Source: Escherichia phage vB_EcoM_Ozark
Sequence record: NC_054927.1
Direction: 5' to 3' (one strand)
Length of the DNA: 64,000 nt
The position numbers and the translations under genes were made by a program. Under the pieces are notes generated by a model. It did no database searches, was not told where the DNA came from, and saw only the letters and a program-made list of their open reading frames with translations. Positions 9,178 through 54,726 of the stretch are shown here, piece by piece (within the stretch, counting starts at the first letter, position 1; each line of letters opens with the position of its first letter).

Positions 9178-10497
9178 TCACACATAAAACACATCATAAC
9201 GACCACGAGTGACACCAACATAAAGAAGCTGCTGAGCTAATTCAGCATCTGCATAATGAATACAAGGCGTATAAATGAAAGCACGGTCTACAGACATACC
9301 CTGCGCTTTATGGAATGTTGATGCAGGAAGTGCTTTCACTTTACTAAACTGTGATTTAGCATCCCAAAAATCGCTCCACGGAGCTTTTCCGCCTTTGTTC
9401 CAATTTTTATAAGTTTCTGCCGTTTTACCTAAAAATAGGTTAAACTTATACAATTCTTCATCGGATGAAATTATTTTAATCTTTTCACGATAATATTCAT
9501 CATCGCCGTAAGTTTCTACTGTTAAATCCCAATGACGAATTAGATATTCCCCAGGAACACCACGAGCTTTAACAAACGTTGATGTATACTCAGCTTCTAT
9601 AATACGAACTAATTGTCCGTTATTAAAAATAATTTCTGATACAGGCTTTCCATCAATTTTATATGTTTTAATTAATGGTTCCTGCATTACAATAATTTCA
9701 CCGACAATAAAATCTTTATCAGTTTCAAAAATCTTTTTACGAATAATGCTATTTAACTTGTCAACAGATTTATTCGTAAATGCCATTACGCGATTTTCAA
9801 ACAAATCATCTAAAGATTTGACGATTGAAAAATAATTTACCATAAAATCGCGTAAAGCGGTATCACCAGTAAATCCACGTACTCCATGCCCGTCAACAAC
9901 TTTATCATAAATCCACTTACCGTTACGAACGTCAGTAGCTACATCAATAATAGGAGCATTACTGCGTTTAACTTCAGTAAGTTCACACTGATAAAAATCT
10001 TTATGTGTAAAGAATGGACTGATATAAGCAGTGTTTTCTCCTGGGTCAACAGGTCTAATTTGCTTATTATCGCCTATTCCAATTATAGTACACCAAGGTG
10101 GGATAGTTGAAAGCAGAATTTTAAACAGCTTTCTATCATACATTGACACTTCGTCACAGATTAATACTCTGCATTTAGCTAAATCTGGTACTTCCTTCTG
10201 CTCAAAGAGGACATTTTCTTCATATGTTACTGGGTTAATTTTAAGAATACTATGAATAGTACTCGCTTCTTTCCCTGATAGTTTTGAAAGAATCTTTTTA
10301 GCTGCATGAGTAGGAGCTGCTAAAATAATACCAGTTTCACCCGTAGATATTAAAGCTTCAATGATGAACTTAGTAAGAGTAGTCTTACCGGTACCGGCAG
10401 GTCCATTAATAGTTACATGATGTTTCTTTTCTTTAATAGCCTTCATAACAATGTTAAAGGCATTTTTCTGGCCTTCGGTCAAATCATCAAATGTCAT
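9178..10497 (-). CDS. dda: Dda DNA helicase (SF1B), 439 aa
   Basis: Walker A GPAGTGKTT; 439 aa as T4 Dda. Confidence 0.9.
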   Translation of the reverse strand: MTFDDLTEGQKNAFNIVMKAIKEKKHHVTINGPAGTGKTTLTKFIIEALISTGETGIILAAPTHAAKKILSKLSGKEASTIHSILKINPVTYEENVLFEQKEVPDLAKCRVLICDEVSMYDRKLFKILLSTIPPWCTIIGIGDNKQIRPVDPGENTAYISPFFTHKDFYQCELTEVKRSNAPIIDVATDVRNGKWIYDKVVDGHGVRGFTGDTALRDFMVNYFSIVKSLDDLFENRVMAFTNKSVDKLNSIIRKKIFETDKDFIVGEIIVMQEPLIKTYKIDGKPVSEIIFNNGQLVRIIEAEYTSTFVKARGVPGEYLIRHWDLTVETYGDDEYYREKIKIISSDEELYKFNLFLGKTAETYKNWNKGGKAPWSDFWDAKSQFSKVKALPASTFHKAQGMSVDRAFIYTPCIHYADAELAQQLLYVGVTRGRYDVFYV

Positions 10498-16334: not shown

Positions 16335-16535
16335 ATGGTACAAAAATTAATGGCACTTGTTAATGCCATCAAAGGTAATAAAAAGCGTATAGCTTTTACT
16401 ATTTCTGCTATGATAGGAATTTTACTTTGGAACTTTATTTTATCACCTGTTGCAATTGCACATGGTATTAATATTCCAGTAGTTACTCTTGATACATTCG
16501 TAGATTTAGCATTTGCTTTAGTTGGGTTAATTTAA
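16335..16535 (+). CDS. plus-strand small membrane protein (66 aa, 2 predicted TM helices)
   Basis: AAGGAGG RBS 4-5 nt before ATG; hydrophobic; convergent with gene 61. Confidence 0.45.
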   Translation: MVQKLMALVNAIKGNKKRIAFTISAMIGILLWNFILSPVAIAHGINIPVVTLDTFVDLAFALVGLI

Positions 16536-17560
16536 ATCTTAGCATATTTAGATAGCCGCATTTTAGCCATCAACCCCTGTGCAATATTATTTTTCATATA
16601 TTCCATAATTTGTTCAGGGGTTGCACCTTCCTTTCTAATCATATCATTAACATCTTTTGATTTCCAGGGAGATTTATCCCAAAACATAACCCTTTCTCCT
16701 GCATCAACTAATTTAGTCATTCGCTTAATAGTGTCAGGATGACGAGGTTCATTATCTAAAACCCACACACGTCTATCTTTAAATGGAACAACTTCTAGGT
16801 CTAATTGACCACCTGTAATAGCTATACCATTTTCAATAAAAAGTGAATCTATAGGTCCTTCTAGAACATATACATCACCATCTTTAACTCGTTCGACTCC
16901 ATAGATTTTTGTTGCCTCAGGATAAGCTTTGATGGTGATATATTTTTGAGGAGCATCTTTCTTTAATGCACGTCCTTGAAAAGACTCAGCTTTTCCATTA
17001 GCATTATAAATTGGAATAACAAGACGAGGCTCAGGTATTTCCTTTTTATATGTTCCCGGTGCTATACTATTAACTAATTTAGGCCATTCGGTTGTAAACC
17101 AAAGATATTTCCATTTATCCTTTGGAATACAACGAGCTTTTACATATTTTATAATTGGATGGTCTTCCGCCAGTTTATCTAATCTAACACATGACGGAAG
17201 AGATTTAATTATTTTCTTCTCAGGTTGCTTAGGAAGTTCTTTAGGTTTTTCTACTGGACGACTTTTACCTTTTTCTTTTCTTATTTCAAAGATATACTCA
17301 CGATATAAATCAGGTTCAAACTCCTTTAAATATATTCCGATTGGTGCATGATAATTACAGTTATAACAATGAATATTTCCTTCATTATTATCACCATAAT
17401 ACCATCCACGAGCTTTATTCTGGTCGGTTTTTGAATCTCCACAAACAGGACATCTAAACCGCAATTTAAAAGTTGAACTATTATTTACTTGTGTGAATTT
17501 AGGTAAATGAGCCAATGCACGATACGCAAACTCATTATCAATCCAAGGTATTGATGACAT
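16532..17560 (-). CDS. 61: DNA primase, gene 61 (342 aa)
   Basis: N-terminal CPVCGDS...CYNC zinc ribbon; 342 aa as T4 gp61. Confidence 0.9.
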   Translation of the reverse strand: MSSIPWIDNEFAYRALAHLPKFTQVNNSSTFKLRFRCPVCGDSKTDQNKARGWYYGDNNEGNIHCYNCNYHAPIGIYLKEFEPDLYREYIFEIRKEKGKSRPVEKPKELPKQPEKKIIKSLPSCVRLDKLAEDHPIIKYVKARCIPKDKWKYLWFTTEWPKLVNSIAPGTYKKEIPEPRLVIPIYNANGKAESFQGRALKKDAPQKYITIKAYPEATKIYGVERVKDGDVYVLEGPIDSLFIENGIAITGGQLDLEVVPFKDRRVWVLDNEPRHPDTIKRMTKLVDAGERVMFWDKSPWKSKDVNDMIRKEGATPEQIMEYMKNNIAQGLMAKMRLSKYAKI

Positions 17561-45876: not shown

Positions 45877-46055
45877 TTAGAAATAGACTTTTCACCATTA
45901 GAATAATAAACTTCAAGTTTAGCACGATTATTTTTAATTTGAATAACCTTGGCTGTCATCAAAGTTCCATACCCATAATAAACTGCAACTTCATCACCTA
46001 CATATACCGCGCTTCCGCGGTAATCATGAATATAGTCAGTTCCTTCGAGCATCAT
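45840..46055 (-). CDS. hypothetical protein (71 aa)
   Basis: ORF. Confidence 0.35.
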   Translation of the reverse strand: MMLEGTDYIHDYRGSAVYVGDEVAVYYGYGTLMTAKVIQIKNNRAKLEVYYSNGEKSISKWKYGDCMVKLG

Positions 46056-46315
46056 TTAAAATATTCTCGCAGTTGGTCAAATCCACCAATATGACTTCCA
46101 TCAGGAGCAAATACCTGAGGCATTGTCAAGCCGATTTGAGTATCACGACCTAGTTTCGTCAGAAGCTCAGCAATTTTCTCATCATCAAAAACACCTTTTT
46201 CCGGCATAATGTTGATAAATTCAAACGGCTGTTTCTTCACAGTCAAAAGACGTTTTGCATTATCGCAATACACACATTTATGGATGTTGCTATCATAACC
46301 ATATACTTTAAACAT
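46052..46315 (-). CDS. nrdC: thioredoxin/glutaredoxin NrdC (CVYC active site), 87 aa
   Basis: CVYC motif; 87 aa as T4 NrdC. Confidence 0.85.
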   Translation of the reverse strand: MFKVYGYDSNIHKCVYCDNAKRLLTVKKQPFEFINIMPEKGVFDDEKIAELLTKLGRDTQIGLTMPQVFAPDGSHIGGFDQLREYFK

Positions 46316-46316
46316 A

Positions 46317-46559
46317 TTATTCCTTAATTCCTAGTACTTGTTTAAAAGTCTCGTCGTAATCAAGACTTTGGCCCGTTTGTTCTTTATGTTTGTATATAAT
46401 ATCACTTACTTCTGATAGCATATTTTTGTATGAACGAGTTACAGCAGATTTAAGCACGCTGTATCTATCAGGAAATTTACCATGTTCATTATAATAAGCT
46501 ATTGCTAATTCACGGACTGCCTTTTCAGCAGTCTCCATATATTCTTTACGCTTGGTCAT
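46317..46559 (-). CDS. hypothetical protein (80 aa)
   Basis: ORF. Confidence 0.4.
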
Positions 46560-46561
46560 TT

Positions 46562-46951
46562 TTAATCCAAAATATTATTAGGCATTGGTTGAACACTCAC
46601 AAGTTCTTTAAAGAACTCAGTAGAGTCAGGCAATTTAACCATTTCCGGAGCATGCTTATTAAATTTATGTTTACAATGACGGCATTTATATTCAAGCTCT
46701 GGTTTACGCCAGTTAATCAATTGAACTTGTTCAGTACCGCATTCAGGGCAATTAGGAACGTTTTTAGAAGCTCTTTCACGTCGTTCAACCATAGCCATAA
46801 TAGCATCCCATGCTGGAGGTTTAAAATCTAAATCGTCGCAGCCGTGAATCTTTCCACGCATTTCCATATCATCTTCCTCACCAGCCATAATAATTTTAAT
46901 TAAACTGGAATTACTTGAAGCTGCAATGTCTTCTAATAAACGCTTTTTCAT
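46562..46951 (-). CDS. zinc-ribbon protein (129 aa)
   Basis: CPECG...CRHCKHKF. Confidence 0.45.
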
Positions 46952-47877
46952 TTCAATACCTCAATAGCATTACGTAAACCATTTGCTTTTGCATTAAGAG
47001 CTTTTAACAATTTGGTGTGTTCTGCAATTTGGGCTTCAACTTCAATCAAACGGGCATTGAGATATTCGCGTTCTTCACTCAGATTATCAACCTTTTCTAC
47101 TTTAGGCTCTTTTACAACTGTCTTATATGTATTAGGGTTCTTCAGTTTAATTAGAATGCGTGAACTGTATAACATTGAACCATTATCTTCGGTTTCGTCA
47201 TACATTTCCACTACGTCCATAATTTTTAACATCATGCGGAGTTTATAAGACAACGAACGAATAGTTTTGTTGTGCTTATTAATTTCTTTAGCTGTCATGG
47301 TGCCAAGATTACGTGAGTAATAATAAGGAACCTGGATATTAATTAATACTGATGAACCACCTGGCTTGTGTGTTACTTCATCAGCAATAACCCAGTCCTT
47401 AACATGAACTGTATTTGTACGATCATCGCCCGCGGTGAACAGTTTGCGAGCATGCTTAAAAAGCATATTCACTTGGTCATTGAATTGGCAAGCAAATTTA
47501 TCAGCAAATTTGGTTTCAGGAATGGTAGAAAACCAATTAGCCAAATGAGTCTTTTTAACATCATTAACAATAGTAAATTCAACCAAATCGGTTATAGATG
47601 TCTCAGATTTAATAAAGCTCGGCTTCATAAAGTTTTTAATGTTATCGTGAGCTACAGTAGAAGATAACATACGAGAACGTTTAAACCATTCAAGCAAATT
47701 GCCTAACGAATGAGAATAAGCGTTTTGAGTATCTTTACAGATATGATTTTCCTGGCCAACATATTGAAGGAAATCACGAAGAATATTATTGATTACTGCT
47801 CTGTGTCCTATCTGATAATTACGATGTTTAGTAATAAGACTGTCAAAATAATCAATATAATGTTTACGAGTTTTCAT
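46948..47877 (-). CDS. paralog family member with C-terminal coiled coil (309 aa)
   Basis: weak similarity to 47930, 48989, 50017 ORFs; C-terminal heptad region. Confidence 0.45.
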   Translation of the reverse strand: MKTRKHYIDYFDSLITKHRNYQIGHRAVINNILRDFLQYVGQENHICKDTQNAYSHSLGNLLEWFKRSRMLSSTVAHDNIKNFMKPSFIKSETSITDLVEFTIVNDVKKTHLANWFSTIPETKFADKFACQFNDQVNMLFKHARKLFTAGDDRTNTVHVKDWVIADEVTHKPGGSSVLINIQVPYYYSRNLGTMTAKEINKHNKTIRSLSYKLRMMLKIMDVVEMYDETEDNGSMLYSSRILIKLKNPNTYKTVVKEPKVEKVDNLSEEREYLNARLIEVEAQIAEHTKLLKALNAKANGLRNAIEVLK

Positions 47878-47929
47878 GTTCTTCTCACTTGGTTAATGAT
47901 TTATGCTCCGAGCCATCCTTGGCTTTAAA

Positions 47930-48961
47930 TTACTTAATTAACTGTAAAGCTTGTTCAAGACGATCCAAGCGATTGACAGATTCTTCCCAAATCTTTTTAG
48001 CCTGCTCATATTCTTTCTGCGCTTTATTAGAAATTTCTAGAACTTCTTTATAAGCTTTTTCTAATGCAATAACTTCTGGACGAATTTCTGCCGGTTCAGG
48101 CGAATCATCAAGATTATCCATTAGTTCCTCAAGGGTAGTTTCTTCTTTAGAAGTATTCACAATTTCCTCACATTTTTGTTGATAAATTTCTTTATCAGTA
48201 GGTGAATAAGCACATTTCACTTCACGAAGACTAATTACAATTTTATATCCTTCCCATCCGCATATATTCTTAAAAGGATATGTATGAATATTTTCTACTG
48301 TTTCCATACAAAGTAATGCAGTCTCTAACTGACGAGTTATAGTGCTAGCAATTGAGAAAAATTTATTAATATTCTTTTGGTTAGCGTTTGGTGTAAAAAA
48401 TCCATAATTCACAAAAATAGCTACTTTATTTTCATCAAGCTCATATTCTTTTACGATAATCATATCAGAAGCCAAAGGATGAATTTGACGATAATCGCCA
48501 TAACATAATTTAGAAGCTGATTTTAGAATTTGTCCTTTGAAAAGTCTGAAATTACTAATCCAACGACGAGTAAAAATATTCTCAGGGTCTTCTTTATTAT
48601 TAAGATGATAAGAATTAACATCACCGAACCAATTATATCCTACTACATCTTTGGTTCGTTTAATTTCTTTCCCAAAATTACCAAGAATATCCCGATTAAC
48701 CAAATATGAAAGAAGACGAGACTCTTTAAAAGTTTTTTTGATAACATCTTTATCTACACGGCTAGAAATTTTACGAATTTCATGAATAAATTTAGTAGAA
48801 GAAACAATACTTGCATCAACACTATTGAGCCATTGATTGATAATAGAAAGAACGATATTTTGACCAAACATCGGTATAGCTTTATCATCAATAACGCTGT
48901 TGAACGATTTAATATATTCGTTGCGAGTCATATTAATCTCCTCAGTAGAAAGTAAGAACAT
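47930..48961 (-). CDS. paralog family member with C-terminal coiled coil (343 aa)
   Basis: W-R..F.LF...ILKSASKL block shared with 48989..50008. Confidence 0.5.
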   Translation of the reverse strand: MFLLSTEEINMTRNEYIKSFNSVIDDKAIPMFGQNIVLSIINQWLNSVDASIVSSTKFIHEIRKISSRVDKDVIKKTFKESRLLSYLVNRDILGNFGKEIKRTKDVVGYNWFGDVNSYHLNNKEDPENIFTRRWISNFRLFKGQILKSASKLCYGDYRQIHPLASDMIIVKEYELDENKVAIFVNYGFFTPNANQKNINKFFSIASTITRQLETALLCMETVENIHTYPFKNICGWEGYKIVISLREVKCAYSPTDKEIYQQKCEEIVNTSKEETTLEELMDNLDDSPEPAEIRPEVIALEKAYKEVLEISNKAQKEYEQAKKIWEESVNRLDRLEQALQLIK

Positions 48962-48989
48962 TATACCACATCCTTGTGGCGAAGTAAAC
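48960..48989 (-). promoter_or_regulatory. T4 early-type promoter, near-identical to the one at 2429-2458
   Basis: fwd gtaaac 48984-48989, attata 48960-48965. Confidence 0.55.
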
Positions 48990-50008
48990 TAGTTTAGTGC
49001 ATTTAGTGCGTTGTTCAGTTTAGAACGTTGCTTCGTGAGATTTTTGACTTTTTCTTGTGCTTTTTCTAGCATCTTTTCAGCTTCTAACACTTCATTGGTC
49101 GCTTTAACGAGTTCATCATCTACTGCCTTAAGAGACTTCTCAATCGCATCCGCGTGCCATTTTTCAACAGGTTTAAGACTCGGATTTTCAATAGGAAGAA
49201 AATTCGCTTTATTAAATTTCCATGCATCTTTATTACCTGAGCTATACATCCAAAATTTAGGATCGTTTGATGAGCAATTAGATAAATTTAAGTTATCTTG
49301 CACTTCCTGCTTTTTCTCTTGCGTGACTTCGTCTTTTCTCAAAAAATCATATTTAAATGAAACGATCATATCAAGTTCATATGTTGTTGTATGTTCCCAA
49401 TTTCGCTCAAAACGAGGTAAAATCTTAGACTGAACAGCGGCAACAACATCCATATACTTAAATGCTTCTGTCAACTGTGATTTAAGGCATTCACAAATTG
49501 AAAGAGAATTTTTTGTATTAGGTTTAAAGCTAATTCGTGCAGTTCTATTATTTTCTTTTAACGGTCTTACTTCCATCTGAAGAGTATAACCATCAAATTT
49601 CAGATTCTTTAAGTTAATATCAGAGCCTTTTAATCGACTAGCAGTAGACAAAATTTGCTTTAATTGTTTACGAAATAGAGCAATAAATCTCCATTCAATA
49701 CGATAATGATTTGGATTAAAAAATCCTGTTGATAAATCAACCTTACTCTGACCAACGCCTTGAACAAATAGAGGATTTTTATAATCAATAGTTTTACAGA
49801 AATCGGTGAGCTGCTCACGAGCAGTCATTTGTGTAATATATCCCGCTTTACTAAAATGACGTAACCATTCACTGCTATTCATATACTTAAAGTGAATATC
49901 ACGATTAACTTTATCAGGGTCTAAATTATTTTGGCACAAAAATGTCATAACATTACGTGTATAGCTGGCATTACGAACCATATCTTCAATTTGAGAACGA
50001 GTTTTCAT
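48989..50008 (-). CDS. paralog family member with C-terminal coiled coil (339 aa)
   Basis: see 47930..48961. Confidence 0.5.
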   Translation of the reverse strand: MKTRSQIEDMVRNASYTRNVMTFLCQNNLDPDKVNRDIHFKYMNSSEWLRHFSKAGYITQMTAREQLTDFCKTIDYKNPLFVQGVGQSKVDLSTGFFNPNHYRIEWRFIALFRKQLKQILSTASRLKGSDINLKNLKFDGYTLQMEVRPLKENNRTARISFKPNTKNSLSICECLKSQLTEAFKYMDVVAAVQSKILPRFERNWEHTTTYELDMIVSFKYDFLRKDEVTQEKKQEVQDNLNLSNCSSNDPKFWMYSSGNKDAWKFNKANFLPIENPSLKPVEKWHADAIEKSLKAVDDELVKATNEVLEAEKMLEKAQEKVKNLTKQRSKLNNALNALN

Positions 50009-50016
50009 GGTGTTCC

Positions 50017-50925
50017 TTAAGATTTAAGTAAATCAACAATTTTAATTAATTTTTCACGCTCAGATTTAGCTTTACTACTCAATCCAGATAGTCTGAAAAT
50101 TTCATCGTCATACTGTTGAATAGAAATATTCAGCTCTTCAATTTGCTTATTAAAATAATCAATTTGCTCAGAATGTTTTTCATTACTGCGAACTGGTACA
50201 GGTTTTGTAGGCAATTTAGTTAAACTGGATTCATCCGGGCGATAAATTAAAATACAACTTGAACCAATCGGGCATTTAGCACCAGACACATATTCTAATG
50301 TTCCGGCTTCTTTTAAAACTTCAAAAGCTAAACAGAGATGATGCCCCATATTAACATAATCTGTAGAGCGAGCTCTGACGTAATAATCATCGCCGCGAAT
50401 ACTAAATTTAAAGCATTTAAGGTCTTCTGTATTATTGGTCTTAAAAATCATTTGTTTATCTAGACCTTTAGCTAATCGAGCGCCTAATGCTAATAATCGT
50501 CGTTGATTTTCCCACAAATCCGCAATCATTTGATCGAATGATAATTTCGGCATTAGTCGACCATAAAGGTCATATCCTTTATTATAATTGCGAAGGATTT
50601 CACTCGCGTTAATACGAGACAACGCTCCAATTTTATTAAGGGCTTTCATGATGCGATTAGATAAACCCATTCCAGACCCGTTTGTTCGTTGTAAATGTTT
50701 ATCTAATCCAAACCCAATATCAACTTTAAATTTATCTAAAATTTCAGCATGAACATCTCTGTCAATAACATTCAAATCCAAAGTTGGGTTAAATCTATGA
50801 AAAAATTTATCTGGCTCTCCACGACGAAGTATAGTCCATTCATTCAATTTTTTATTAACTAAAGATTTAATTACTGCATTGACATTATTAATTACTACTG
50901 ACATATTTTCCTCACTCAATTTCAA
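50017..50925 (-). CDS. paralog family member with C-terminal coiled coil (302 aa)
   Basis: weak shared blocks; coiled-coil C-terminus. Confidence 0.45.
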   Translation of the reverse strand: MKLSEENMSVVINNVNAVIKSLVNKKLNEWTILRRGEPDKFFHRFNPTLDLNVIDRDVHAEILDKFKVDIGFGLDKHLQRTNGSGMGLSNRIMKALNKIGALSRINASEILRNYNKGYDLYGRLMPKLSFDQMIADLWENQRRLLALGARLAKGLDKQMIFKTNNTEDLKCFKFSIRGDDYYVRARSTDYVNMGHHLCLAFEVLKEAGTLEYVSGAKCPIGSSCILIYRPDESSLTKLPTKPVPVRSNEKHSEQIDYFNKQIEELNISIQQYDDEIFRLSGLSSKAKSEREKLIKIVDLLKS

Positions 50926-51319
50926 TTTTACTAAATATACAGAATAAGATGGAACAGACTATATAAGCACCACACACAGATTGAACTAATACCATTCCAA
51001 AGAACCAAACAATATTATCAAACAATGTCTGTTTTACGTCGAAAGGACGTAAACTTACAGTAATATTATCGCCTTTTTCTATTGATGAATACATCTCTGG
51101 TGAAATATATTCGCTAAATCTATAACCGTCTTTGAGTTCATATACAGCAATAAACGATAAACTAGACCCCTTTCCTTGAGTTCCTGTAAAGGTATTAACT
51201 ACAGTAACATCATAATCTTTATAATGCATATAATCATTAATTGCGTAATAACTATATGCAACTACTACGCACAAACAACATATCAATAAATTCAATCTTT
51301 TAATTATCAACTGTTTCAT
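50912..51319 (-). CDS. membrane protein (135 aa, N- and C-terminal TM helices)
   Basis: hydrophobic segments. Confidence 0.45.
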   Translation of the reverse strand: MKQLIIKRLNLLICCLCVVVAYSYYAINDYMHYKDYDVTVVNTFTGTQGKGSSLSFIAVYELKDGYRFSEYISPEMYSSIEKGDNITVSLRPFDVKQTLFDNIVWFFGMVLVQSVCGAYIVCSILFCIFSKIEIE

Positions 51320-51374
51320 AATAATCTCAATTAAAAGGGCTTAGAACCATTATACCATCCTTGGTATAAAGCGG

Positions 51375-51902
51375 TTATGCGAGTACCGTCTTTAACCGTT
51401 CTTCAAACTTCCGAAGAGTATTTTGGCGTTCAGCTCTTTGCTTTTTGTAAGTTTCAATACGCTCTGAAATGAGAGTGTATCGTTCATTTACTGATTCTTT
51501 CATAAAATCAGGAATTTCACGAGAAGCTTTAATCTCATCAAATTTATCAATAACAGCTTGCTCTTCAGCAATTAAGTTATCATACATCAAAATATCTTTC
51601 TTGATGAACTCAATATCTTCTTGAGTTACACGAGATAATTTAGATGCTTTATCCTTTTTGTACTGTTCGTTAGTATCACGAGACCAGTGTAATGTACGAT
51701 TTTTATTCGTATTCTTGTAAATTTCTACAATACCAATCTCATCGATAATAACGATCCAATTCCAACGAGATTTGTAAATTTGTCCTCCGTCAACCGTGAT
51801 TTCACCTCCGATTGAGATGTCATTAAAGAACTTGCTTTGTGCTTCTGATTTAAATTTACCATCGTTGTAATTTACCAGGTTGAAAATATCTTTAGCGTTC
51901 AT
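51375..51902 (-). CDS. hypothetical protein with C-terminal coiled coil (175 aa)
   Basis: GGAGGA RBS; leader identical to that of 25287..25538. Confidence 0.5.
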   Translation of the reverse strand: MNAKDIFNLVNYNDGKFKSEAQSKFFNDISIGGEITVDGGQIYKSRWNWIVIIDEIGIVEIYKNTNKNRTLHWSRDTNEQYKKDKASKLSRVTQEDIEFIKKDILMYDNLIAEEQAVIDKFDEIKASREIPDFMKESVNERYTLISERIETYKKQRAERQNTLRKFEERLKTVLA

Positions 51903-51930
51903 TTTGTGTTCCTCCGTAGTTGATAGTTGT

Positions 51931-51960
51931 ATAGTACCACAAAGGAACAGTCTTGTAAAC
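51931..51960 (-). promoter_or_regulatory. T4 early-type promoter
   Basis: fwd gtaaac 51955-51960, -10 TACTAT. Confidence 0.55.
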
Positions 51961-51962
51961 CG

Positions 51963-52277
51963 CTAAAAGAAACTTCTTTCACAATTTTTTCCACTGAACC
52001 ACGCGCTCACCGCTTTCTTAGTCTCAGGAGCAGTGTTATCCATAAACCATTCAAAAGCAGCCTTTTTATGATTCTGGAGGGCTTCTCGGGCTTTAATCTG
52101 CTCACGGTCTATTAACACTAACATATGAGCCTTTCTTGTCACCATGGGCTTCTTATGATTTTTTGAATACTCCCAATCATTTGTCCATCGCATCGTTGTT
52201 GCGAACTGAAATACTGCTTCTTTAATTTTAGTTTCGTAAATCTCACGAGCCTTTGAGTATAACATCACTACCTCCAT
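51963..52277 (-). CDS. hypothetical protein (104 aa)
   Basis: ORF. Confidence 0.4.
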   Translation of the reverse strand: MEVVMLYSKAREIYETKIKEAVFQFATTMRWTNDWEYSKNHKKPMVTRKAHMLVLIDREQIKAREALQNHKKAAFEWFMDNTAPETKKAVSAWFSGKNCERSFF

Positions 52278-52366
52278 TTACCAGTTTAATTCTAATCATC
52301 TTTTTGATGGCAGTCCATATAATCTATTTCTGAACTGCCTTTTTGTCATAGAAGGCCTCTTATGAA

Positions 52367-53335
52367 TTATTTCAGAAGAGTAACCTCAGCAATTTCTTCC
52401 CAACCGTTTTTGTCGGTCATAATAAAGTCAGCAAGATAAAGTGCAGTACGCAGTGAAACATTGCGTAAACGATTAACATTGACTTTCATCCATGATAATG
52501 CTTTATAAGTTTCTTCATCAGAAAGACCGCGTTTTTGCATCATGTCAGTTGAAAGAATAACATCTTCAACCCTGACCATAATTTCTTCATTAGTGTGAAC
52601 ACCCAAATCTAAATAAACTGAGCGGGAAACTAATGCTTGTAAATGTGGAGCAAGTTTAGTACCACGATCTAATTCGCGGTCAATATCAACGTTTGTGATA
52701 AAAACAATCGTTCCTTTAAATTCAAACTCACGCTCAATGCCTTTTTCTTCTAAGTAAGAAGATGCAGTGCTCCAGCAGACTTTACGGGTCTCTCCAGTGT
52801 CCAGAGCAGCTTTTAGAAGATTAAGAATGTCCATATCAGAGAAAACATCCACATCATCAATCAAAAGGACAGAATTCTCTTCACGATTATTCCAAAGCTG
52901 TTCATAAAGACCGATACCGGAGATTTTACCGTTAATGCTTTTATATTCAATGTATCCAATATCATTTGCTTTATTTAAAGCTTTATCTAAAGAATACGTT
53001 TTACCAATACCTGCCGCACCAGAGATAATTAATGAACGAATGTTTCCGTTAATAATACCATTCGTCATCATTCCCATAACATTAAATCTTTTATTAATGC
53101 GGGTTTTCATATCTTCATACGATTCTTTAACTTCTTCAACTTTTACACCATCATATGAAATGTCTGATTTGTAAACCCAAACACCGCGACGCTTACCGTC
53201 AATTTCAACAAAAACTTTACCATCTCCTTGTGCATCTACCGGAGCATTATCTGGGAACCATTCACCTAAGAGCTCAAAAGTTCCAGAGATTTCTTTACCG
53301 AAGTAGATACCCTTATTGATAGTTACAGTTTTCAT
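52367..53335 (-). CDS. P-loop ATPase, AAA+-like (322 aa)
   Basis: Walker A SGAAGIGKT, Walker B VLLIDDVD, sensor-1-like VFITN. Confidence 0.6.
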   Translation of the reverse strand: MKTVTINKGIYFGKEISGTFELLGEWFPDNAPVDAQGDGKVFVEIDGKRRGVWVYKSDISYDGVKVEEVKESYEDMKTRINKRFNVMGMMTNGIINGNIRSLIISGAAGIGKTYSLDKALNKANDIGYIEYKSINGKISGIGLYEQLWNNREENSVLLIDDVDVFSDMDILNLLKAALDTGETRKVCWSTASSYLEEKGIEREFEFKGTIVFITNVDIDRELDRGTKLAPHLQALVSRSVYLDLGVHTNEEIMVRVEDVILSTDMMQKRGLSDEETYKALSWMKVNVNRLRNVSLRTALYLADFIMTDKNGWEEIAEVTLLK

Positions 53336-53392
53336 TTTATTCTCCTTTGATTTGATAGGACTACTATAACATAGTCCTATCAGTTTGTATAC

Positions 53393-53593
53393 TTATTTTG
53401 ACATTTCTTCGATGTCACGACGATACCCGTCACGAACTTCACGAAGAGCTTCAAGGCCACACATAGGCTCGATACCTGTAATGTGAACTTGATTAATCTG
53501 ATACTCTACATCTTCTAACTGAGCGAAAACATAACGACGTTCAGCTGCACAACCAGATTTAGCTTTACCGAAACGTTTATTCAAAGTAGTCAT
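53393..53593 (-). CDS. hypothetical protein (66 aa)
   Basis: ORF just downstream of promoter. Confidence 0.4.
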   Translation of the reverse strand: MTTLNKRFGKAKSGCAAERRYVFAQLEDVEYQINQVHITGIEPMCGLEALREVRDGYRRDIEEMSK

Positions 53594-53631
53594 TTTGTAT
53601 CTCCAATTTACTCATTTGTTTTGATAGGTCT

Positions 53632-53661
53632 ATAGTATCAACAACTACAGACCATGTAAAC
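53632..53661 (-). promoter_or_regulatory. T4 early-type promoter with UP element
   Basis: fwd gtaaac 53656-53661, -10 TACTAT. Confidence 0.55.
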
Positions 53662-53692
53662 CGTTTTGTGAAAAATTTTTGAAATAAAAAAA

Positions 53693-53710
53693 GGGAGCCC
53701 GAAGGCTCCC
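53693..53710 (-). terminator. intrinsic terminator (GGGAGCC-UUCG-GGCUCCC then U7)
   Basis: 7-bp GC stem and U-run on minus RNA right after 53713 stop. Confidence 0.7.
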
Positions 53711-53712
53711 TA

Positions 53713-54726
53713 TCATTTATAATAACTTCGGTGGTTTTCAAGATAGACCTTCTCAAGGAAGTCATCCCAGAAACTCATGTCTACTGTTTTAGGCATACCG
53801 TTCTTAGAAGCTTCAGTAGATGCTGCTTCTACTTGATCGACCACATCTTCCAAAAACTCTTGAACTGTTTTAAATGGATGTTTACCCAACTTCACGTCGA
53901 GAATAAATGGAGCATCTTGAAGTGGATAGACTAAGTCACCAGTTTTGTAAATTTCCAATAGTTGGAGTCCACCACGACAAGCATGACTCAAAGCTTTCCA
54001 GTCAATACCTTCATTGGCTTCAGCCTTACGAGCACGTTCACCGTATTCAGCATCTAATTTGTTCAGTGACTGCTTAAGCTCAATAAGAGAAAGCGTTGTC
54101 TGATATTTACGACCCAACACTGTGTAAAACGTCTGTGGGCCTGTTTTCTCATGATTATGGAACACCCATTCACAGAATTCGTTTTCTGGAAGACGATGCT
54201 TAATATCTTCAACTTTAGTACGACGCTGCTTAATGGAACCGTCTTCTTGGTAATCAACCCATTGCTCAGGGATTTGATTAACTACTTTCAATACATCGCG
54301 TAATGCAGCCAAACGAGAACCCTTGACACCGTATTTAGAAGCTTGCTTGCGGACATATCCTAAATAGGATTTCATGTTAGTCGTATAAAAACGAGAACGG
54401 TTGTCTTGAATAAACTTCCACACATCAGGCAAATCAGATTTAACCACTAGTTCAGGTGGAGTGTGAAGCATATCCAATGCTACAGTTTCACCATCTGCTG
54501 CTAATTTAAAGAAATATTTAAGACTGTATAGTTCATGGTCAATATCATCTTTAGTGTTTTTAGATGATGTATTGTTAGTGTTTTTACTCATGTGCTCTTT
54601 GACATTTCCGATAAGAATATCGCGAGCAGGAGGAACAAAGATTTCTTTAAAATCTACATCAGATTCTGGGGTAGAAGTTCCATAAAGATGACTACCAAAA
54701 TAGCTTTTCATTACTGTTTTCATCAT
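53713..54726 (-). CDS. predicted nucleotidyltransferase, Pol-beta superfamily (337 aa)
   Basis: N-terminal FGSHLYGTSTPESDVDF then DIDHE: G[GS]x(n)[DE]h[DE]h signature. Confidence 0.5.
   Translation of the reverse strand: MMKTVMKSYFGSHLYGTSTPESDVDFKEIFVPPARDILIGNVKEHMSKNTNNTSSKNTKDDIDHELYSLKYFFKLAADGETVALDMLHTPPELVVKSDLPDVWKFIQDNRSRFYTTNMKSYLGYVRKQASKYGVKGSRLAALRDVLKVVNQIPEQWVDYQEDGSIKQRRTKVEDIKHRLPENEFCEWVFHNHEKTGPQTFYTVLGRKYQTTLSLIELKQSLNKLDAEYGERARKAEANEGIDWKALSHACRGGLQLLEIYKTGDLVYPLQDAPFILDVKLGKHPFKTVQEFLEDVVDQVEAASTEASKNGMPKTVDMSFWDDFLEKVYLENHRSYYK

Follow-up and report, generated by a model that had tools for sequence, protein, structure and literature searches.

Introduction

Dsr1 is a sirtuin NADase fused to a sensor; it has this sensor in common with Avs7, and its trigger is a phage major capsid protein (PMC13581612). 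A T4 deletion mutant is blocked on E. coli ECOR17 owing to Dsr1, and plasmid-borne expression of nrdC.5, an early gene of T4, restores plating of the mutant on cells carrying dsr1 (Srikant, Guegler and Laub, eLife 2022, PMC9391042). In that study the anti-Dsr1 phenotype concerns nrdC.5 alone among the nrdC genes, and no mechanism or family relationship is described. Here nrdC.5 and its neighbours nrdC.3, nrdC.4 and nrdC.6 are analysed in Escherichia phage vB_EcoM_Ozark (NC_054927.1), in a Tequatrovirus (T4-like) segment of 64,000 nucleotides referred to below as the window. The four proteins are diverged copies of one ancestral Straboviridae accessory gene.

In a sister system, DSR2, a late structural protein (the tail tube) serves as activator and DSAD1 of phage SPbeta as repressor, according to three reports that also give structures (PMC10973363, PMC10981675, PMC11087589). 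DSAD1, a phage protein which switches off a defence-associated sirtuin NADase, provides a working analogy for NrdC.5 and Dsr1; comparison of the NrdC.3–6 family with DSAD1 gave neither sequence nor fold similarity. The locus also resembles the dmd-tifA-adfA ‘anti-toxin–antitoxin (anti-TA) island’ of T4, in which adjoining non-essential early accessory genes each neutralise one defence and are quickly lost or amplified under selection (PMC9391042). The difference lies in descent: TifA is called only analogous to Dmd, with homology not stated (PMC9391042), whereas nrdC.3–6 are copies of one gene.

The genes themselves and the nrdC.5 phenotype are already known. NrdC.5 is the only Dsr1 counter-defence protein in the literature searched, and the same literature holds no follow-up beyond the 2022 paper on nrdC.3, nrdC.4, nrdC.6, anti-Dsr1 or DUF7235. 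NrdC.5 of the window is the orthologue of T4 NrdC.5 (PF23882); NrdC.3, NrdC.4 and NrdC.6 are its distant paralogues, with the same architecture, but lie outside PF23882. In PHROGs, the four proteins and their single-copy counterparts are held in families 1435, 2351, 2257, 26858, 23608, 33957, 31182 and 12512, listed under ‘unknown function’. These families are kept apart there, only NrdC.3 and NrdC.4 sharing one, whereas here they are joined as one superfamily. A link joining the four genes and at least eight PHROG families across the Straboviridae was not found in the literature searched, in PHROGs or in Pfam.

The nrdC.3–nrdC.6 locus

The open reading frames (ORFs) at 46948-50925 are the T4 genes nrdC.3, nrdC.4, nrdC.5 and nrdC.6, flanked by nrdC.2 and nrdC.7. 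The initial annotation had listed four consecutive ORFs here; all are present, on the minus strand, but the starts of nrdC.4 and nrdC.6 are corrected, as described in the section on gene starts. The 3,978-bp four-gene region shares 99.7% identity with Escherichia phage 310Ecol104PP and matched 654 phage records, 461 of them across at least 80% of its length. The coding sequences are as follows.

46948..47877, minus strand: nrdC.3, 309 amino acids; phrog_1435; paralogue of NrdC.4; 61% identity to the T4 allele
47930..48931, minus strand: nrdC.4, 333 amino acids from the probable, corrected start; phrog_1435; PF26897 by precomputed label
48989..50008, minus strand: nrdC.5, 339 amino acids; DUF7235 (PF23882); phrog_2351; 92.6% identity to T4 NrdC.5
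50017..50904, minus strand: nrdC.6, 295 amino acids from the corrected ATG; phrog_2257; PF26899 by precomputed label

Relationship of the four proteins

The proposal that the four proteins are paralogues is borne out by profile comparisons which draw on other phages. A neighbourhood set was collected with the NrdC.10 ATPase as anchor and comprised 33 loci from diverse T4-like phages and one Tegunavirus locus; 508 ORFs were clustered, and the gene-order map covers 35 loci. Leave-one-family-out hhalign comparisons at full length gave probabilities of 96-98% (NrdC.3/4, P 5e-12; NrdC.5, P 1e-12; NrdC.6, P 2e-10). Without the coiled coil the matches were 95.9% for NrdC.3/4 (P 6e-9), 96.2% for NrdC.5 (P 2.5e-9) and 96.0% for NrdC.6 (P 4e-9), the last over 95 columns comprising the conserved blocks A and B described below. 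Seven unrelated neighbouring-gene controls scored 0.18-0.98, and 0.18-0.71 in the comparison without the coiled coil.

An all-against-all hhalign network of 300 pairs, with negative controls included, connects the families through out-group bridges, in particular cluster 27, which is a Karamvirus protein (phrog_26858), and cluster 41. NrdC.3/4 is linked to cluster 41 (94%, P 1.8e-7) and to NrdC.5 (88%, P 3.5e-6); NrdC.6 and NrdC.5 are both linked to cluster 27 (93%, P 3.7e-7 and 90%, P 1.6e-6, respectively), and the two clusters to each other (81%, P 1.2e-5). The top pair involving a negative control stood at 3e-3, the chance level for 300 tests. When the last 75 residues were removed, the links of NrdC.3/4 to cluster 41 and NrdC.5, of NrdC.6 to cluster 27 (over 35 columns) and of cluster 27 to cluster 41 were retained, and the link of NrdC.5 to cluster 27 dropped to P 0.009. 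Reciprocal HMMER searches within the 508-ORF set joined NrdC.6 to cluster 27 (2e-8 and 2e-9) and NrdC.5 to clusters 27 (6e-10 and 1e-5) and 43 (7e-6 and 5e-8), with cross-family scores of about 20–34 bits. Against the PHROG library of 38,880 families, cluster 27 matched phrog_2351 (NrdC.5; 9e-8) and phrog_2257 (NrdC.6; 3.5e-6), and cluster 41 matched families 31182, 33957, 26858 and 1435. The only PHROG matches outside the set, phrog_19693, 19260 and 3523, were marginal and involved short C-terminal segments (E 5e-4 to 5e-3).

All-against-all comparison of the four proteins, the check put forward with the original proposal, places all four above chance by profile, but in pairwise terms only NrdC.3 and NrdC.4. 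These two share 25% identity over 226 residues by blastp (E 1e-6), pair with 98% probability by hhalign and match phrog_1435 over their full length (E 2e-116 and 6e-169, respectively); NrdC.5 and NrdC.6 have no match to that family. Other pairs among NrdC.3-6 remain at noise level in blastp and phmmer, the same as unrelated neighbours, and jackhmmer searches of the neighbourhood ORFs from single seeds (inclusion E 1e-4) did not cross family borders. By hhalign, the globular part alone links NrdC.4 with NrdC.5 at 78% (P 1.9e-5), and a merged NrdC.3/4 profile with the coiled coil removed matches NrdC.5 at 87-90% (P 2e-6 to 5e-6); in reversed-profile controls P was never below 0.096. NrdC.5 scores 416 bits against PF23882 (Pfam gathering cut-off 30 bits) and the Pfam search gave no PF23882 match for NrdC.3, NrdC.4 or NrdC.6; NrdC.5 is therefore the only DUF7235 member among the four. 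Profile comparisons restricted to the C-termini were not significant for any of the four, and the coiled coil alone is therefore no proof of kinship. Common ancestry is concluded because the leave-one-out comparisons, the out-group bridges, the PHROG cross-matches, the Foldseek results and the predicted secondary structure agree.

NrdC.8, which also ends in a helix, was considered as a truncated family member and rejected (best P 0.017 over 84 comparisons). The small syntenic genes of clusters 10, 12, 15, 19, 20 and 33 were rejected as truncated members by the same comparison.

Architecture and predicted structure

In the shared layout, a globular part of helical and alpha/beta character holds three conserved helices (blocks A-C) and is followed by a linker that is variable and disordered and by a heptad helix at the C-terminus. 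In a superfamily alignment of 13 representatives, made up of the four window proteins and nine others, the three blocks and the C-terminal helix align in register and in the same order in every member. Block A has the pattern h..hh+.s+hhS...A...L+.F and block C the pattern Q(l)..AL..M..V, while the C-terminus ends in +L..A(l/m)..L(K/R/N). Block B, F...h......hL..(G/A).(R/K)L..G.D(R/K), is the central signature helix; the weak internal block which the initial annotation had picked out in these proteins is real and corresponds to it. No polar column is invariant among the 13 representatives, and the sole nearly invariant residue is a leucine of the C-terminal helix. Block B and the C-terminal helices are located below, with AlphaFold2 boundaries and predicted local distance difference test scores (pLDDT) for the two modelled proteins, NrdC.5 and NrdC.6.

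47416..47496, minus strand: NrdC.3 block B, residues 128-154, FACQFNDQVNMLFKHARKLFTAGDDRT; from the alignment
48485..48562, minus strand: NrdC.4 block B, residues 124-149, WISNFRLFKGQILKSASKLCYGDYRQ; from the alignment
49613..49687, minus strand: NrdC.5 block B, residues 108-132, FIALFRKQLKQILSTASRLKGSDIN; within predicted helix 104-123
50452..50529, minus strand: NrdC.6 block B, residues 126-151, MIADLWENQRRLLALGARLAKGLDKQ; within predicted helices 123-144
46951..47076, minus strand: NrdC.3 C-terminal heptad helix, residues 268-309, ending LRNAIEVLK
47933..48079, minus strand: NrdC.4 C-terminal heptad helix, residues 285-333, ending LEQALQLIK
48992..49168, minus strand: NrdC.5 C-terminal helix, residues 281-339, predicted helix 280-338 (pLDDT 79-91), ending KLNNALNALN
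50020..50172, minus strand: NrdC.6 C-terminal helices, residues 245-295, predicted helices 242-271 and 277-294, ending KLIKIVDLLKS

The charged, heptad-like C-terminal helices originally described for all four proteins are likewise recovered. The models place helices at the C-termini of NrdC.5 and NrdC.6, by a simple heptad score the C-termini of all four come out positive, against negative values in four neighbouring proteins, and 33-40% of the last 70 residues are charged. Against the coiled coils of BST2, GCN4 and prefoldin, the superfamily profile gave only matches with E 0.008 or weaker.

The AlphaFold2 model of NrdC.6 is usable (pLDDT 79; predicted template modelling score 0.66). In both models the predicted order of elements is a helix-turn-helix (A), a long helix (B), strands, a helix (C), a beta-hairpin, a disordered linker and a long C-terminal helix, and the aligned blocks A-D fall on the same secondary-structure elements. 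A Foldseek search of BFVD with the NrdC.6 model returned uncharacterised T4-like proteins of about 300-375 amino acids, with probability of about 1.0 at 11-16% identity, from Karamvirus, Pectobacterium, Acinetobacter, Moonvirus, Tegunavirus and other T4-like phages. The top non-orthologous match, from IME523, is a member of cluster 27, and the weaker NrdC.5 model shares two Foldseek targets, Cronus and PM2, with the NrdC.6 model. This structural evidence for the family is indirect. No enzyme domain was found in the four proteins in Pfam or NCBIfam (nothing above cut-off in the latter), and sequence searches of the PDB together with the structure search gave no solved relative and no structural match to any enzyme.

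At residues 30-86 of NrdC.3 (47620..47790, minus strand), a stretch which overlaps block A, there is a weak likeness, short of threshold, to the SAM-like domain at the N-terminus of tyrosine recombinases (PF02899 in Pfam, E 0.096; XerD models of NCBIfam, E 0.003-0.016). It may hint at how the helical part folds, or be due to chance.

Copy number, synteny and divergence

The family occupies a slot between NrdC.10 and gp49/nrdD in the gene-order map. An expanded family in the plastic nrdC-tk region had been proposed, and the distribution across T4-like genomes agrees with this: the slot holds one copy in distant T4-like genera, three in Mosig-, Dhaka- and Gaprivervirus-like contigs and four in Tequatroviruses. 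The three-copy contigs carry NrdC.6, NrdC.5 and one NrdC.3/4, against two NrdC.3/4 copies in Tequatrovirus; the duplication behind NrdC.3 and NrdC.4 is therefore confined to Tequatrovirus.

Flanking proteins keep 65-90% identity where NrdC.6 keeps 33-51%, NrdC.5 21-24% and NrdC.4 40-44%, or where family members are no longer detectable by BLAST. The ratio of nonsynonymous to synonymous substitution rates (dN/dS) relative to T4 is 0.32 for NrdC.3, 0.17 for NrdC.4, 0.19 for NrdC.5 and 0.09 for NrdC.6, compared with 0.02-0.08 for the flanks NrdC.8, NrdC.10 and NrdC.11. The four are functional genes under relaxed purifying selection. The fast evolution suggested by the initial annotation is thus visible both in identity and in dN/dS, but as relaxed constraint rather than demonstrated positive selection. 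Constraint is uneven along the proteins: in NrdC.4 (dN/dS 0.03) and NrdC.6 (0.00) it is strongest in the C-terminal helix, and it is weakest in the NrdC.4 linker, with a dN/dS of about 1.2 that derives from few sites.

NrdC.3 occurs in at least three alleles. Between T4 and the window, identity is 61% for NrdC.3, 79% for NrdC.2, 92.6% for NrdC.5 and 93-100% for other neighbouring genes, and the window allele of NrdC.3 is 76-78% identical to the single NrdC.3/4 gene of two Mosigvirus-like contigs (L012 and L013). On these identities, the stretch at 46562..47877 (minus strand) points to an allelic replacement of NrdC.3 through recombination between genera.

Rearranged members are also seen. In three contigs of about 167 kb (P0120), nrdC.4 is deleted and NrdC.5, up to about residue 271, continues in frame into NrdC.3 at about residue 137; the fusion point lies just ahead of NrdC.3 block B (compare window positions 47416..49570). 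NrdC.6 of Shigella phage Sf25 (P0122) carries an 83-residue internal tandem duplication, giving 378 instead of 295 amino acids, which spans block C, the beta-hairpin, the linker and the beginning of the C-terminal helix (compare window positions 50112..50358). The nrdC.4 gene is split into two ORFs (193 and 158 amino acids) in a 169,650-bp viral contig (L010), and is in two pieces in one T2 record and one T4 record, suggesting occasional decay of this copy.

Yersinia phage fHe-Yen9-01 (Tegunavirus, L007) has two dispersed candidate members, at 9459-10337 and 16382-17323, both on the minus strand. Its gp94, downstream of NrdC.10, matches the NrdC.6 and NrdC.3 profiles, and its gp111, between NrdC.11 and NrdC.10, is a Foldseek match of the NrdC.6 model; the family is therefore not always tandem. 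A different gene, cluster 10 (phrog_4750, about 260 amino acids, function unassigned), lies just downstream of NrdC.10 and always before the family member in single-member genera (L014-L034). By hhalign it shows no kinship with the family, and it is absent from Tequatrovirus-, Mosigvirus-, Dhakavirus- and Gaprivervirus-like loci, where NrdC.8 is found instead, except in L023.

Function and alternative explanations

The initial annotation had raised a host-interaction or anti-defence role. This is experimentally established for T4 nrdC.5 against Dsr1 (PMC9391042); NrdC.3, NrdC.4 and NrdC.6 are good candidates for immune evasion because their paralogue NrdC.5 switches off Dsr1, and they may share the role. 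The explanation which accounts best for the data overall, and which we hold to be probable, is that the family members are binding proteins without enzymatic activity which block sensors or effectors of immunity, with copies aimed at different targets. The absence of catalytic features, the coiled coil and an arms-race signature are the reasons for inferring non-enzymatic oligomeric binders; both direct binding by family members and oligomerisation through the coiled coil are predicted. The signature itself comprises copy numbers of one, three and four, low identity, raised dN/dS, the NrdC.3 replacement, and fusions, duplications and splits.

Under this explanation the genes would be transcribed early from the minus strand: nrdC.5 is early by the literature, and an early-type promoter match precedes nrdC.4. 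The C-terminal helix would hold the proteins as dimers or higher oligomers. Early in infection the globular part, which changes fast, would attach to a sensor or effector of host immunity and silence it before late phage proteins act as triggers. NrdC.5 would in this manner neutralise host Dsr1, which is set off by a phage capsid protein, and divergence would have let the copies deal with different defence proteins, or alleles, of the host.

Several results weigh against this picture. Within the family the anti-Dsr1 phenotype belongs to nrdC.5 only, and the published assay is genetic and does not separate direct from indirect inhibition (PMC9391042). The overall dN/dS of NrdC.3-6 is below 1, and positive selection is not demonstrated. 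Direct comparisons of NrdC.6 with NrdC.3, NrdC.4 or NrdC.5 are not significant (hhalign P 0.008-0.08), and its direct links consist mainly of blocks A and B and the C-terminal helix. The NrdC.5 model is poor (pLDDT 55 overall) because its homologues are nearly all more than 85% identical, and neither model matched a BFVD entry identifiable as NrdC.3, NrdC.4 or NrdC.5.

Some of these points would suit the idea that only NrdC.3, NrdC.4 and NrdC.5 are true paralogues, NrdC.6 having converged on a short helix motif and a coiled coil: its direct comparisons are weak and its trimmed match to cluster 27 is short. We consider this improbable, since the coil-free leave-one-out match of NrdC.6 extends over blocks A and B at 96%, its secondary-structure order is that of NrdC.5, the two models share Foldseek targets, and NrdC.6 sits in the same syntenic slot. 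It is more improbable still that all four are unrelated orphans whose likeness reflects Lys/Glu-rich coiled-coil composition, an explanation already largely refuted. Sequence searches are indeed silent for every pair but NrdC.3-NrdC.4, PHROGs and Pfam place the four in three separate families, and the link of NrdC.5 to cluster 27 fades without the coiled coil; but with the last 75 residues removed the superfamily match remains at about 96% (P 2.5e-9 to 6e-9), far from the scores of the seven controls, the blocks stay in register across the alignment, and NrdC.8, equally helix-ended, is unrelated. An enzymatic route, by which the family would rebuild or protect NAD+ as the NARP pathways do, has in its favour that Dsr1 is thought to deplete NAD+ and that NAD+ reconstitution pathways counter DSR1. 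Membership among such enzymes (NARP1/2/3) was rejected, and this route is the least credible of all, given the lack of an enzyme domain in Pfam or NCBIfam, of an invariant polar residue across the superfamily and of a structural match to any enzyme.

A weightier alternative accepts the family but has NrdC.5 overcome Dsr1 indirectly, by hiding or delaying the capsid trigger or altering host physiology, the paralogues being general early host-takeover proteins. Host physiology is the target of many early accessory genes of T4, and strongest conservation in the C-terminal helix of NrdC.4 and NrdC.6 would suit a partner common to all copies; the genetic nature of the nrdC.5 assay also leaves room for it. 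On the other hand, nrdC.5 on a plasmid restores by itself, on dsr1 cells, the plating of a deletion mutant that lacks further genes as well, laboratory hosts can be infected without these genes, and copy number and sequence vary strongly among close phages, the pattern expected of host-specific functions. We therefore judge the indirect route unlikely, and favour the direct blocking of immune sensors or effectors. A bolder form of the favoured explanation, about which we are doubtful, would have the whole superfamily dedicated to blocking the pattern-recognition sensors of bacteria, as a response to capsid sensing throughout the Straboviridae. The Avs7/Dsr1-type sensor is common to defence proteins with at least 20 different effector domains; the coiled coil would oligomerise the phage protein, the globular part would plug a capsid sensor of this type, and each paralogue would cover one sensor lineage.

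The superfamily provides three ready candidate counter-defence genes in the best-studied phage, and its natural variation can be used to map the parts which set specificity as opposed to the common scaffold. The case also illustrates how a phage can broaden its host range by duplicating a gene in a plastic part of its genome. By-products of the analysis are the two corrected start codons and the recognition of a widespread mislabelling, both described below.

Gene starts, promoter and annotation

The start of nrdC.4 is probably ATG 48931, which gives a protein of 333 amino acids. The mechanical ORF begins at ATG 48961, a start that is widely annotated (343 amino acids), but this codon sits within the -10 box of an early-type promoter match, and ATG 48931 is preceded by a GAGGAG ribosome-binding site. 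The promoter, a consensus match only, is as follows.

48960..48988, minus strand: early-type sigma-70 promoter match, (G)TTTACT-N17-(TG)gTATAAT, immediately upstream of nrdC.4

For nrdC.6, the mechanical TTG start at 50925 falls inside the end of nrdC.7. ATG 50904 comes right after a GAGG which overlaps the nrdC.7 stop codon and is also favoured by homologues; on this sequence context the start is assigned to ATG 50904, not TTG 50925. The gaps between nrdC.7, nrdC.6 and nrdC.5 are at most 8 nucleotides, which suggests translational coupling of the three genes.

NrdC.1 to NrdC.11 (window 46052..54726) are labelled ‘thioredoxin’ in many phage GenBank records. Neither Pfam nor NCBIfam finds a thioredoxin or glutaredoxin domain in these mislabelled genes, the four analysed here included, and the label seems to derive from the name of the locus, nrdC.

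In the gap upstream of nrdC.10, an inverted repeat with a 12-bp stem (window 53352..53383) overlaps a promoter-like match at 53363..53391 on the minus strand. The repeat may serve as a hairpin in regulation or as the terminator of the gene upstream.

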